Notes: generated from the sequence alone by a model not told the origin. A stretch of 64,000 nt of DNA from Candidatus Babelota bacterium (GCA_965658655.1 CBFHTA010000001.1:360722-424721); one strand, 5' to 3'; counted from the stretch's first letter, positions 32,419 through 37,119 are shown. Numbers and translations are program-made.

Positions 32419-33537
32419 TTAGAGTGATCGGTACAATGCTAGATGCTCTTCCACCATTGCGCTTGTTGTAAACTCAGAAAGATCTTCTTTGTGCGAACTT
32501 AATTTTTCGTATAAATGTTTATCATTAGCGAGTGAAAGCATACCCTTTCCTAAAGATCCTTTATCTTTAGGTTTGTATAGTAAGCCATTTTCTCCATGAT
32601 TGATCACATCGCTAATACCGCCTACATTATAGGCAATAACGGGCAACTTTAGAAAGCGTGCTTCTACAATGGCACAAGGGAGCCCCTCCCATAAAGATGA
32701 CAATAGAAATGCATGCCATGAACGCATAAAAGAATCTACGTCCTTTTGCCATCCATGTAGCGTAATAACATGTTCTAATTTATGCTGTTTTATCCATTGT
32801 TCTATTTGTGGTCTTAGGAATCCATCACCAATAATTTCGAGCCTTGTGCGTGGATTATGTATATGTGTATAAGAAAAAGCATGCAAAAGATCAAAAAGAT
32901 TTTTCTGTTTTTTAAAACAAGAAACGGTTCCAAAAACAAAGGATCGAGTTTCTGGAGGTGTCTTTATTGCCGGTACAAATTGAATATTATTAATTGCTGC
33001 TCGAATAATAGAATGTTTATAGATAAAGTTAGGTATCGACATAATGCCTGTTTCAACATCTTTAGTAGAAACGCAAACATAATGTGTAGTGATAAAACTT
33101 GTTAGTACTTCAAGAAGATAACTGATGAAATAAGCCGGCAATGATTGATGTTCATGAAAACCAAACCCATGAACAGTGTGAATACGGTACCTTGCTCCGG
33201 CAAACCACGCTGCCCATCGCCCCAAATAGCCTGCTTTGGTGCTATGAGTATGGACAATTAAATCTTTATTTTCTGCTTTCTGTTTTTTGATGTTGCGAAC
33301 TAAATCTATAAATGCTTTTAATTCATAAAACCCAATTTCTCTTTTAAGAGAGTCTAATAGAATAACATTTGATTTTGATTTGGTTTCGGAGACTAATTGT
33401 CCTTCTGATCCAGATATAAGCCAAGATTGATGTTGTTTTTGTAGTGCATTAAAAAGGGCAAGGCAAACTTTTTGAGCACCTCCTAATTCTAATTTAGTAA
33501 CAATATAAATAACATGGATCCCCTTTTTTTTTCCCAT
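32419..33537 (-). CDS. Glycosyltransferase family 4
   Basis: LELGGAQ, HTHSTKAG, HTVHG and SLWEGLP..IVEA. Confidence 0.9.
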   Translation of the reverse strand: MGKKKGIHVIYIVTKLELGGAQKVCLALFNALQKQHQSWLISGSEGQLVSETKSKSNVILLDSLKREIGFYELKAFIDLVRNIKKQKAENKDLIVHTHSTKAGYLGRWAAWFAGARYRIHTVHGFGFHEHQSLPAYFISYLLEVLTSFITTHYVCVSTKDVETGIMSIPNFIYKHSIIRAAINNIQFVPAIKTPPETRSFVFGTVSCFKKQKNLFDLLHAFSYTHIHNPRTRLEIIGDGFLRPQIEQWIKQHKLEHVITLHGWQKDVDSFMRSWHAFLLSSLWEGLPCAIVEARFLKLPVIAYNVGGISDVINHGENGLLYKPKDKGSLGKGMLSLANDKHLYEKLSSHKEDLSEFTTSAMVEEHLALYRSL

Positions 33538-33548
33538 TACTATCCTTT

Positions 33549-34508
33549 TTATTGAAGAAGGAGTACAAACAAAGCGATTAAGAAAGCATAAATTGAACAG
33601 GTTTCAATTAATACTTGCGCAGTAAGACTGGTACGAGAGAGTTGAGAATAATTTTCGGGATGAAGAGCAAGATACTGACAAGCTTTTGTTGCTGTGTTCC
33701 CAGAACCAATACCAACACCTAAAGTTCCAAGGCCCATTACAATCGCTGCTGCAACATAGGGTAGACCACCTGTTGCAAGAGACATCGCAGATGATTTTGT
33801 TCCTAGTAGAGCAAAAGCCATGACCAGAGAAAAAATAATTGGAGATTCAATGAGTGCTTCACTAATAAGTGTGAAAGAAAGTATTTCTGTGTAAGCAGCA
33901 CGATTAACACCTAAACTTTCACATGCTTGGCGTGCAAAGCGAGCTAGCCCCATAGTTGGGCCTATGCTCCCTAGGCCAATACATAGTCCGGCGCTGATTA
34001 ATCGTACACTTTCGGCTAAAGAAGTAATATTGGGAATCTGTTCTTTAATAAAGAAAGAAATAACAAAAGCAAAAAGAAGCGGTGTTTGCATTAATGATTG
34101 TGTAAGTAACATAATCATTTGAATTTTTTGGGTAAAAAATGGTTGTCGAGCTACAGCTAAGCATGCAGACTGCGCTGGAAGCGATGCCGCAACACCAAGA
34201 ACAGCTCCTGTTATACAAATAGCTAGACCAATGCCTGTAACACCATAATGCATTAATGGTGCATGAGGAGACGTAAGAATAGGTTTAAGTAACATAAAGG
34301 CTATAGTAAGCCCGATGATAGCTGAAGTTTCTATGAGTGCCATGCTAAGCATGAGAGTTCGTGTAATTTCTGCGCGTGCACTTGGCTGAATAGTAAGGGC
34401 TTTCATAGCTGCTAAACTCGCTAAACCTTCTCCAATTCCCACAGCTACGGAATTACATCCAACAGCAAGACCTACAGTAAGATAATGAAATAAAGTGGTA
34501 TCAAACAT
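33549..34508 (-). CDS. atpE: ATP synthase Fo subunit c, four fused hairpins
   Basis: Four ~80-aa c-subunit repeats with Gly-rich inner helices, loops IQP/RQP/VNR/LHP and outer-helix E60/Q141/E221/E302; directly follows atpB. Confidence 0.9.
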   Translation of the reverse strand: MFDTTLFHYLTVGLAVGCNSVAVGIGEGLASLAAMKALTIQPSARAEITRTLMLSMALIETSAIIGLTIAFMLLKPILTSPHAPLMHYGVTGIGLAICITGAVLGVAASLPAQSACLAVARQPFFTQKIQMIMLLTQSLMQTPLLFAFVISFFIKEQIPNITSLAESVRLISAGLCIGLGSIGPTMGLARFARQACESLGVNRAAYTEILSFTLISEALIESPIIFSLVMAFALLGTKSSAMSLATGGLPYVAAAIVMGLGTLGVGIGSGNTATKACQYLALHPENYSQLSRTSLTAQVLIETCSIYAFLIALFVLLLQ

Positions 34509-34510
34509 AA

Positions 34511-35251
34511 TTAAGGGCCTTCTTGATGCTCACCCTGAATGCCAAGTGAGAGATAGGTTAACGAAAGCATAGCAAAAACAAACGCTTGTATACTTCCCCC
34601 GAAAAGGGTGAAGAAAAATGCTATCAATATATTAAATCCAAAAAAGTTTATAACGGTGGCAATCCAATGAGAACCAATACTGCTCATATAAATATTATTA
34701 ATAACAGAACCACCAAGTAGGTTTCCAAATAAACGGAATGAGATAGAAATAATAGAAGCAAGTTTACCAACAACGTTTAATGGGAACATAACAAAAAATG
34801 GTTGAAAGAATTCTTTGCTATATTCTCTAAAGCCTTGGGCTTTAATTGCATAGTAATTGGCATAGAGAAACGACAATGTTCCTAGAGCCAAGGTAGTGCT
34901 TAAGTCTGCAGTTGGTTCTTCTAACTCAGGAATGAGACTTATCACATTGCAGATTAGAATGAAAATAAAGAGGGCAAACATAAAGCTGAAGTGGTGAAAG
35001 TTAAAAGATCCGAGTGTTTGCGTGCATAAATCCATAAAACCTTCGGTAGCCGTTATAAGAACATAGCGGGTTCGAGATTGTTTATCTTTAAAAAAGAATC
35101 GCCCTAAGACGATCAATAAAACAATAACAAATAAAACAGCCCATGTGGCTATTATTGTTGACAAGGTAAAGTTGAAAAAAGAGTGTTTGTAACCATAATG
35201 TTTGAATGGATTCCAGAACTCTTTTGGACTTAAGAGATTAAAATCACTCAT
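34511..35251 (-). CDS. atpB: ATP synthase Fo subunit a
   Basis: PTADLSTT, PLN, SISFRLFGN (essential Arg) and IQAFVFAMLS..Y. Confidence 0.95.
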   Translation of the reverse strand: MSDFNLLSPKEFWNPFKHYGYKHSFFNFTLSTIIATWAVLFVIVLLIVLGRFFFKDKQSRTRYVLITATEGFMDLCTQTLGSFNFHHFSFMFALFIFILICNVISLIPELEEPTADLSTTLALGTLSFLYANYYAIKAQGFREYSKEFFQPFFVMFPLNVVGKLASIISISFRLFGNLLGGSVINNIYMSSIGSHWIATVINFFGFNILIAFFFTLFGGSIQAFVFAMLSLTYLSLGIQGEHQEGP

Positions 35252-35507
35252 GTTGCACCTTCTTTTTTATGACGGCGACCCAAAAACTCGCTAAAAAAGA
35301 TATCAATACCAGTATAATGTCGAGTGAAGTTCTACGCAATATATAGTTCCATAGAAGTGCTACAGAAACAATACGCAGAAGTGCTGTAAAAAAAGAAGAT
35401 ACAAAATTACCTTGAGAGAATGAAAATTTATTGGTGAACAAAAAACTATAAATAATACCTGTGATAGAACCTAATGCTAACGATCCTAAGATGTGGGTAA
35501 CAGTCAT
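35244..35507 (-). CDS. AtpI/AtpR-like small membrane protein
   Basis: Three TM helices with LLR motif, overlapping the atpB start. Confidence 0.6.
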   Translation of the reverse strand: MTVTHILGSLALGSITGIIYSFLFTNKFSFSQGNFVSSFFTALLRIVSVALLWNYILRRTSLDIILVLISFLASFWVAVIKKKVQHE

Positions 35508-35509
35508 AA

Positions 35510-36931
35510 TTATAGTTTCTTAATGCCCTTATAGTTCCAATATTCAGCAAGGAAGTGTTCTGAACCAGCAATTGCAACCAAACCATGACGATCGTTAACG
35601 GTTTTCTTTGCAGCATCAAAAGCTTCTTTAAAGGTACGTACAGCGCGAGCTTTAATCTTAAGCGCTTTCATATCTTGAGTAACTTTTTCTGCGTCCCAAG
35701 ATGTGGTTTTTTGGTCGGCTCGTTCTGGTACACCACAAATAAAGATATTACCAGATGTTTTCTTAAAGAAGTAACGGATAGCACGTAAGAATTCTTGGTA
35801 ATCAAGTTTTTCTTGTGGGCACCCTACAATAAGAGTTAAACCCTTAAGAGAACGGTTATAATGTAACAATCTAATACCAAGTAAAAAGTTATTAAAGGCA
35901 TCAATGTTATTTGCATTATCAAGCAATACTGTTGGCTTTTCTTTATCTAAGATCTGGAAACGACCAGCAAGTGTGCTCGCTGTTTCTTTCCAAAAGTGTT
36001 CAATAGTTCTTTTTGGATTAATTTGTGATTGACGCTTTGCTTCTAGAGTTGGGCGACCTCGTTGTCCTTTAACACGCGCAAGCAAGCTATCTTTAGCCAA
36101 AGAAGGATGCTTTGATGCAAAAGAATTAACAAATACAGAGGCAATTCTTTCTGCCAATGCCGCACAACGCCCGTGTAGTTGTTCAAACGGATACGCAAGA
36201 GCAATAAGTTTTCTGATAGGCATTGCCCATTCAGCACCTACTTCTGCAGCATGCTGACTCATGCTTTTTAAGTTTGCTTTATTTTGATCAGCAGACAATA
36301 AATGAGTACCTTTGGTGACTGCGCCTAAATATTCTTTAATAACATCTTCAGAAGCTTGTCCTTCTGCATTAACATCGGTGCTTGTCAATCGTGTAATCGC
36401 TATAATTTTTGAATTACTAATAACGGTTGGGTGAGATGCCCCACCTTGTTCAGCTTCTAATAATGCTATATCAACCTTGTTTTGCTCAAAATAGTTGAAA
36501 GCAATCTGAGTAAGAAGCTCAGAAGTATTGGCTTTAAGACCGAGAGTTTCGGCAGTGTTAATAACATCGTTAGCCAATTCAGTAAAAATTTTGTTTGAGA
36601 CTGTTTCTTCATCAAGAGAGAAACGTTCGTTATAATTAAGGATGTGAGGCGCAACAAAACTACCAACAGTAAAACCTTCAGCGCGTAAGAGCTTAGTTGC
36701 AAAATGAGCAGTCAAACTTTTCCCGTTTGTTCCACCAATTAAAACAGTTTCCACTTTTTGTGAAGGAGAACCAAATGCTTTATCAAGCTGACGAGCTCTT
36801 TCTACATTTTTTCCGTCACAACCAATGGTCCAGTGTCTATTAAGGAAGTCTGTAACTTCTGCGTAACTACGTTGTTTTCCTAGGTTAACCGCACTTTTAG
36901 GTGAAGTTGATGTTTGTTTTACTGTGCTCAT
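35510..36931 (-). CDS. Divergent FolC-like (Mur ligase superfamily) protein
   Basis: GGTNGKS P-loop, PHI..YNERF, LLE and AGRFQ...LLD.A.N. Confidence 0.75.
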   Translation of the reverse strand: MSTVKQTSTSPKSAVNLGKQRSYAEVTDFLNRHWTIGCDGKNVERARQLDKAFGSPSQKVETVLIGGTNGKSLTAHFATKLLRAEGFTVGSFVAPHILNYNERFSLDEETVSNKIFTELANDVINTAETLGLKANTSELLTQIAFNYFEQNKVDIALLEAEQGGASHPTVISNSKIIAITRLTSTDVNAEGQASEDVIKEYLGAVTKGTHLLSADQNKANLKSMSQHAAEVGAEWAMPIRKLIALAYPFEQLHGRCAALAERIASVFVNSFASKHPSLAKDSLLARVKGQRGRPTLEAKRQSQINPKRTIEHFWKETASTLAGRFQILDKEKPTVLLDNANNIDAFNNFLLGIRLLHYNRSLKGLTLIVGCPQEKLDYQEFLRAIRYFFKKTSGNIFICGVPERADQKTTSWDAEKVTQDMKALKIKARAVRTFKEAFDAAKKTVNDRHGLVAIAGSEHFLAEYWNYKGIKKL

Positions 36932-37119
36932 CGTATTTCCTCATTTTTAGTAACATCCATTTTTCTGTTTCACTACTATTCTAGCTTATAATCACCTTTT
37001 AAAGCTTTGATTTTAAGCTACAGATGACTGTTAAATAAGTTTACGTTATAATAAAGTAATGTCAATCTGGTAATATTTAGTAGGTAGAAAAATGATATTT
37101 ATTTACAAAAGTTCAAAAA

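Follow-up and report, generated by a model that had tools for sequence, protein, structure and literature searches.

The four-hairpin c subunit gene and its neighbors

We examined a 64,000-nucleotide stretch of DNA from Candidatus Babelota bacterium (GCA_965658655.1, CBFHTA010000001.1:360722-424721; hereafter the window), which carries on its minus strand, directly after the ATP synthase a subunit gene atpB, a gene for an F-type c subunit of unusual length. The open reading frame (ORF) occupies positions 33549..34508 and encodes 319 amino acids (aa) and a stop codon, while the plus strand across the same positions has stops throughout and is a closed frame. A preliminary description, made from the sequence of the window alone, had recognized four c-type hairpins in this product, and profile searches agreed. 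The Pfam model ATP-synt_C (PF00137) matched the protein in four stretches (total 118.1 bits, cut-off 24), and when the genome was searched in six frames, each hairpin individually scored above the cut-off (46.3, 40.2, 34.4, and 33.0 bits). AlphaFold2, run with a 50-row alignment, folded the protein into eight long helices arranged as four hairpins, with a mean predicted local distance difference test score of 95.8 and a predicted template modeling score of 0.91. The product is a genuine four-hairpin (eight-helix) F-type c subunit, which we name c4. It departs from the standard F-type c subunit twice, having four hairpins in 319 aa rather than one in 70-90 aa, and having one hairpin, the second, without a carboxylate.

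The four hairpins differ in their ion sites. Hairpin 1 (residues 1-80; 34269..34508, minus strand, as for the other three) carries the carboxylate E60 and a second acid, E27, at the inner helix. Hairpin 2 (residues 81-161; 34026..34268) has Gln141 instead of the ion-binding carboxylate and a cytoplasmic loop reading ARQPFF. Hairpin 3 (residues 162-241; 33786..34025) combines the carboxylate E221 with an extra E217, and hairpin 4 (residues 242-319; 33552..33785) has the carboxylate E302 along with Tyr307. An alignment of the hairpins confirmed E27, E60, Q141, E217, E221, E302, and Y307, so the substitution in hairpin 2 and the other motifs quoted in the preliminary description are all present. 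Identity among the four hairpins is just 19-30%, which argues that the fusion is old and that the hairpins did not arise as a tandem repeat of recent date. Hairpin 4 is the nearest of the four to single-hairpin c subunits, being 35% identical to the atpE product encoded elsewhere in the same genome.

Family models also placed c4 with the F-type proteins. Its best NCBIfam matches were F0F1 subunit C models (PRK06876, 75.8 against a cut-off of 71; TIGR01260, 47.1 against 43.95), and V-type K models scored it far under their cut-off (47.3 versus 211). Membership in an N-ATPase was considered and rejected, as the N-ATPase-specific models were not reached (TIGR03322, 90.4 against 130.85; TIGR03306, 101.8 against 302.1) and the order of genes here is small ORF-atpB-c4-glycosyltransferase, in place of an atpDCQRBEFAG operon. 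A 15,216-nt contig of run X1, possibly from the source sample, covers positions 32526-36950 with zero differences, and pieces from a second sample, X2, overlap parts of the c4 gene, again with zero differences.

The neighboring gene atpB (34511..35251, minus strand; PF00119, 124.7 bits) encodes a 246-aa F-type a subunit, in which an FRLFGN motif shows the conserved Arg, and c4 starts 2 nt past its stop. An ORF for an 87-aa hydrophobic protein (35244..35507, minus strand) overlaps the atpB start by 8 nt. This small protein is AtpI-like by position only: it has no Pfam match itself, a profile of its orthologues matches nothing in the PDB, and just 2 of 17 orthologues matched ATP-synt_I (PF03899), faintly (best E 0.043). 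BLASTP found its homologues upstream of atpB in 20/36 and 34/80 related loci. Two nucleotides separate the 87-aa ORF from the stop of a folC/Mur-ligase-like gene (35510-36931, minus strand), whose Mur_ligase_C score of 28.1 bits falls slightly below the cut-off of 28.4. Together these form a packed minus-strand run of folC-like gene, 87-aa ORF, atpB, and lastly c4, with a glycosyltransferase gene next, and the tight packing of the folC-like gene with the Fo genes looks like shared transcription. Among the ORFs and Pfam matches of the window, there was no b, delta, or F1 gene near c4, and no further c gene.

Distribution and ion-site variation of c4

Names on related proteins and contigs place the organism in the Dependentiae (TM6, Babeliales). 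A survey of repeat number across relatives, envisaged in the preliminary description, was made with 201 Dependentiae genomes, including the source genome, from 120 genera and 20 families. A c4 match was found in 201/201 genomes, and at least two matches in 198/201; relatives throughout the phylum carry a full-length c4 frame without stops. In each of the 10 other genomes where the extra match was inspected, it proved to be a single-hairpin c, and the genomes keeping both c genes range from 0.8 to 2.4 Mb. The position behind atpB is shared as well: c4 follows atpB immediately in 35 of 36 loci (the sole miss is at a contig start) and in 76 of 80 loci of a second, overlapping set. The distance from atpB stop to c4 start is between -14 and +29 nt in 110/113 related loci.

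To relate the hairpins to one another, a tree was built from 144 separate hairpins of the 36 loci and 11 single c sequences. Hairpin positions 1, 2, and 3 and the single c subunits formed one clade each (Shimodaira-Hasegawa-like approximate likelihood ratio test [SH-aLRT] support of 96, 97, 99, and 96, respectively), and position 4 formed one clade for 35 of its 36 rows. Since each hairpin position forms its own clade, the tree indicates that the fusion was single and ancient, and we regard c4 as a hallmark of the phylum Dependentiae. Branches between the five hairpin groups were weak (support 23-83), and we make no claim on the order of the duplications. A genome scan with the hairpin-3 motif typical of Dependentiae returned only Dependentiae/TM6/Babeliales or vaguely labeled metagenome-assembled genomes (MAGs), a scan in which other phyla were not searched specifically. 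Vermiphilus pyriformis and strain Noda2021 are among the relatives that carry the gene. Some MAG records with a Dependentiae-type cluster are labeled "uncultured Pseudomonadota bacterium," "Proteobacteria bacterium," or "Alteromonas naphthalenivorans," labels that look wrong or generic. Atlas clusters of the c family, of 314, 228, and 323 aa, are labeled as commonest in Thermodesulfobacteriota, a label resting on the 4-19 members that have a known phylum; mislabeled MAGs may be the source of this odd label.

Ion sites were tallied in 100 distinct full-length c4 sequences from 116 loci, after 14 duplicates and 2 short sequences were dropped; 80 of the 116 loci came from the hairpin-3-motif scan, which makes the sample a biased one. 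Read across hairpins 1-4, the commonest pattern was EQED (47 sequences), followed by EQEE (26, and also the pattern of the source c4), EEEE (14), EMED (7), DQED and EEED (2 each), and EQGE and EGQE (1 each). Thus, four acids are kept in 16 sequences, three in 82, and two in 2, the last being those of loci L050 (genome G114; E-G-Q-E) and L031 (genome G008; E-Q-G-E). Over the 36 loci, E60 is Glu in 35 and E221 is Glu in 34, while the acid of hairpin 4 is Glu in 15 and Asp in 21 (Asp in 58/100 relatives). Y307 is Tyr in 36/36, and position 27 is Gln in 17, Glu in 10, and other residues in 9.

A maximum-likelihood tree of c4, built without the column of the hairpin-2 trait, divided the sequences into groups of 16 and 84 rows (support 100/100). 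The smaller group has Glu at hairpin 2, with Gly in one row; the larger has Gln, with Met in one clade of 7 and one nested reversal to Glu. In locus L136, Glu stands again at hairpin 2, nested among Gln forms. The trait changes 3 times on this tree, by the deep E/Q split, one E-to-G change, and one nested Q-to-E change. The idea that the hairpin-2 carboxylate had been lost repeatedly, which might have pointed to selection, was considered and dropped, as the tree shows one deep E/Q split; the loss is in essence a single old event in the major lineage, the one that includes the source genome.

Mean column entropies of hairpins 1-4 were 1.93, 1.64, 1.50, and 1.74 bits, so that hairpin 3 is the most conserved, and hairpin 2, even without its carboxylate, is more conserved than hairpins 1 and 4. 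Judged by this conservation, hairpin 2 is not decaying and is under purifying selection. Across 50 sequences, Q122 of its ARQPFF loop never varies, and R121, P123, and F124 hardly do. This is the canonical F-type RQP loop, and it aligns with the ARQPE loop of chloroplast c. Work on Escherichia coli has shown the RQP loop of c to be the contact with gamma and epsilon of the central stalk. Hairpin 3 has a loop, G.NR.AY, that hardly varies either, and the single c has only GK.PE.

A second c gene, the scattered F1Fo set, and the parasite context

The source genome assembly comprises 929 kb in 4 contigs (two of which, C1 and C3, are cited here) and is 95% complete. Its fifth PF00137 match is a single-hairpin atpE of 82 aa (58.4 bits; C1:44808-45056), which lies ~350 kb from c4 and has an intact ion site. 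Its product would be ~8 kDa, against ~33 kDa for c4. The gene is preceded by an AT-rich leader of 82 nt that belongs to it alone and by a strong ribosome-binding site, GAAAGGGG, and is part of a cluster (C1:41886-45056) of atpE, two b-like ORFs, atpH (OSCP, delta), and atpA (alpha). The b-like ORFs, of 122 and 171 aa (C1:43931-44789, minus strand), fall between atpE and atpH and match no Pfam family; by position, they should be strongly diverged b and b' stalk subunits.

The remaining subunits are found at further sites. atpD and the epsilon gene occupy C1:216737-218424, with epsilon on the minus strand at C1:216737-216979 and overlapping the atpD stop by 4 nt, and gamma stands alone at C3:103122-103988. 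Only one atpB is present, the single PF00119 match of the genome being the copy in the window, and there is one alpha, one beta, one gamma, and one epsilon. The three PF00006 matches are alpha, beta, and Rho; with Rho as the third, V-type A/B subunits are absent, and so is a V-type enzyme. The F1Fo genes are thus spread over four loci with no single operon, as a complete set in which c genes of two kinds occur. At just 80 aa, epsilon matches the beta-sandwich domain ATP-synt_DE_N in Pfam and nothing else, without a C-terminal helical domain, and its length is 78-86 aa in 30/30 loci (the source genome and 29 relatives). In other bacteria, the C-terminal domain of epsilon inhibits ATP hydrolysis.

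The preliminary description had spoken of an energy parasite and had pointed to F1 and translocase genes as worth seeking. Both sets were found, and membership in the Dependentiae further sustains the parasite view. Four tandem TLC genes, of the ATP/ADP translocase family, lie at C1:489882-495556 (frames of 466, 477, 444, and 472 aa). A membrane-bound pyrophosphatase (H_PPase, 819 bits; C1:318570-320480) adds, as predicted from its family, a second ion pump, one that works without ATP, to a lineage whose respiratory chain is reported to be missing. TM6 genomes have been described as having neither a tricarboxylic acid cycle nor an electron transport chain, and the TM6 ATP synthase has been proposed to run in reverse, hydrolyzing ATP to keep a gradient (PMC4776705; PMC6561590).

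The c sequences also bear on the coupling ion. In the ring of Fusobacterium nucleatum, Na+ is liganded by Glu/Gln32, the carbonyl of Val63, Glu65, and Ser66, with Thr67 holding a water ligand and Tyr70 bonded to Glu65 (PMC3692424). The single c of the source genome has a full Na+-type set, reading Q...ETS..Y and aligning over 79 residues with the Q...ETT..Y of Acetobacterium woodii c2; across the phylum, the full ligand set was present in 4/11 single c sequences. None of the hairpins of the source c4 has it. The preliminary description had likened the ET...Y pattern of hairpin 4 to Na+-site ligands, but this pattern is incomplete, with Ser at the equivalent of Gln32 and Cys at that of Thr67, and it is the single c that has the complete set instead. 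Hairpin 1 of c4, with E27 and E60, resembles the two-carboxylate site of F. nucleatum (Glu32/Glu65; PDB 3ZK1; PMC3692424), but it has Ile65 at the equivalent of Tyr70, and position 27 varies among relatives. For the source organism, Na+ is a plausible coupling ion on these sequences.

Rotor composition and comparison with known systems

We lean, if only by a little, toward a reading in which c4 and the single-hairpin c form a mixed ring in a single F1Fo ATPase that mainly hydrolyzes imported ATP to pump ions. c4 would be a rotor component of the organism's only F1Fo ATPase, co-assembling with the atpE product in one c-ring like that of A. woodii. The enzyme would run mainly backward: ATP imported by the translocases would be hydrolyzed, Na+ or H+ pumped, and the membrane energized. 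The gear ratio of a rotary ATPase (ions per ATP) is set by the number of ion-carrying c hairpins in its ring. With hairpin 2 lacking a carboxylate, each c4 would take away one ion-carrying step per turn, and fewer ions per ATP would let hydrolysis sustain a larger ion-motive force. This effect follows from how phosphorylation potential, the number of ions, and ion-motive force are related, as set out in PMC9171764.

Co-assembly, stoichiometry, direction, and coupling ion are what we infer from several observations. Both c genes are kept in reduced genomes of more than 100 genera, which argues that both are needed and supports a mixed ring. So does the arrangement of the genes, with c4 packed against atpB, whose product is present in one copy per enzyme, and atpE provided with its own leader and strong ribosome-binding site. 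This layout would fit roughly one c4 per a subunit and many copies of the single c. The lone copies of atpB, alpha, beta, gamma, and epsilon speak for one enzyme, and the four TLC genes, the membrane pyrophosphatase, the short epsilon, and the missing electron transport chain reported for TM6 speak for a pump.

Several points weigh against this reading. The two c genes are ~350 kb apart and share no operon, unlike those of A. woodii, and a ring with a single c4 would be short of just one site, a small gear change. The loss at hairpin 2 is one old E-to-Q change (84/100 rows) and no repeated event, and the full four carboxylates (EEEE or EEED) persist in 16 of the 100 distinct sequences; as four-acid forms exist, site loss cannot explain why the fusion arose. 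The coupling ion is ambiguous, with the full Na+ set in only those 4 of 11 single c sequences. Finally, both the expression of c4 and its place in one ring with the single c are predictions from genes.

A more specific form of the mixed ring can be drawn from the loops. Given the RQP-loop contact with gamma and epsilon and the conserved loops of hairpins 2 and 3, c4 might act as a docking platform for the stalk. The rotor would then be asymmetric, with one c4 as a "keystone," in ~1:1 ratio to subunit a, nucleating a ring that the single c finishes. The ARQPFF and G.NR.AY loops would form a socket for the foot of gamma and epsilon, giving a fixed registry between stalk and ring and one silent step per turn at a defined angle to gamma. 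We rate this version as speculative and rather unlikely. Predictions of a complex of c4, gamma, and epsilon, made from alignments with c4 as partner, scored 0.56, 0.56, and 0.55, and a control with gamma replaced scored 0.38, which is neither support nor evidence against.

c4 could instead build a homomeric ring (for example, of three copies, with 12 hairpins and 9 sites), with the single c forming an alternative ring on the same stator and F1 as a gear shift, perhaps between life stages. It is in keeping with such a ring that c4 is the c gene beside the only atpB, that archaea are known to have multi-hairpin c subunits that build whole rings (subunits with 1, 2, 3, and even 13 hairpins are mentioned in PMC9171764), and that conservation of both genes fits two alternative rotors as well. 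If c4 made up the whole ring, however, strongly reduced genomes could do without atpE. Instead, atpE stands at the head of the b-delta-alpha cluster, and nearly all genomes have a further single-hairpin match. In the one F-type enzyme with two c types whose structure has been solved (4BEM), the ring is mixed, and differential regulation is without support; we consider the homomeric ring improbable, though worth keeping in mind. The preliminary description had considered the case of c4 as the sole c subunit, which would limit the ring to 8, 12, or 16 hairpins with 6, 9, or 12 sites. In favor of this reading, c4 follows atpB, and the window has no other c gene. The canonical single-hairpin atpE overturns the premise, and the ring-size limit falls with it: atpE has an intact site and lies beside the stalk and alpha genes, and a single-hairpin c recurs in 10/10 other genomes. 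We give a sole-c ring very little credence.

It could also be that c4 does not rotate at all and serves as a scaffold for ring assembly or as an ion-conducting module with subunit a, independent of F1. Its cluster of small ORF, atpB, and c4 does stand apart from all F1 and stalk genes, and the loops of hairpins 2 and 3, which are conserved to an unusual degree, could be meant for a different partner. On the other side, the adjacent atpB is the only a subunit available to F1Fo, and the mid-membrane carboxylate, needed only for translocation against subunit a, is kept in three or four hairpins. The fold of c4, moreover, matches ring subunits, and hairpin 2 keeps its RQP loop, so that a non-rotating c4 seems to us quite unlikely. 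As for an assembly artifact, which the preliminary description had allowed for, or a decaying pseudogene, the frame is full-length and free of stops phylum-wide, the four hairpin positions are orthologous among relatives, and the X1 contig and the overlapping X2 pieces are identical to the assembly; we regard either as almost certainly wrong.

Among known proteins, the closest relative of c4 is the c1 subunit of A. woodii, one of the fused forms named in the preliminary description. Chain J of 4BEM was both the best PDB sequence match (phmmer E 1.4e-11), with ordinary F-type c subunits next, and the best PDB fold match (Foldseek E 5.3e-05, TM-score 0.75 on the target, root-mean-square deviation 2.0), with NtpK second. 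In the A. woodii ring, nine c subunits have a single hairpin, and a tenth has two hairpins but one Na+ site; this enzyme has also been produced heterologously in an E. coli strain deleted for atp (PMC9171764). In both systems, a multi-hairpin F-type c follows atpB and has Gln for the carboxylate in one hairpin, and a single-hairpin c with a Q...ET(S/T)..Y site coexists. They differ in that c4 has four hairpins, whereas c1 has two (~18 kDa, V-type-like), and in that c4 has three sites here and four, three, or two in relatives. Both c genes of A. woodii lie in one atp operon, in contrast to the two loci ~350 kb apart in the source genome. Furthermore, c4 is found phylum-wide in obligate parasites and not in acetogens, and it is known here from genes, whereas the mixed ring of A. 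woodii is known from structure.

Other multiplied c subunits belong to different enzyme types. Archaeal A-type c subunits with two, three, or thirteen hairpins likewise show covalent multiplication of the hairpin, sometimes with site loss that changes the number of ions per ATP (PMC9171764; bioRxiv 10.64898/2026.10.01.756066), but they are part of A/V-type enzymes, whereas the hairpins, a subunit, and F1 are all F-type here; a four-hairpin form is not among the archaeal c subunits named in those two sources. NtpK of Enterococcus hirae (2BL2) and the eukaryotic V-ATPase c, c', and c'' share the double-hairpin fold, with one site per two hairpins. They are unlike c4, which scores far under the V-type K cut-offs and whose genome is without V-type A/B subunits.

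A preprint survey of c-subunit duplications names A. woodii as its F-type case (bioRxiv 10.64898/2026.10.01.756066), and the A. woodii hybrid rotor is the only F-type multiplied c with a silenced site named in that preprint and in PMC9171764, the others there being archaeal or V-type. Our literature search, which did not extend to supplements, found no paper on a four-hairpin Dependentiae c subunit. To this one F-type case, we add a whole phylum of ATP-importing parasites with a four-hairpin F-type c beside a normal one, and its variants, which keep four, three, or two sites, form a natural series. If the mixed ring is true, it would be a second, and much more widespread, natural heteromeric F-type rotor; if rings are instead made of c4 only, ring size would be fixed in steps of four. 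Either way, the Dependentiae offer a natural system in which to ask how an ATP synthase becomes suited to pumping through the makeup of its ring, the loss of ion sites, and the absence of the inhibitory domain of epsilon. Multi-hairpin c subunits and hybrid rotors are already known; what is new is the four-hairpin, phylum-wide F-type form.

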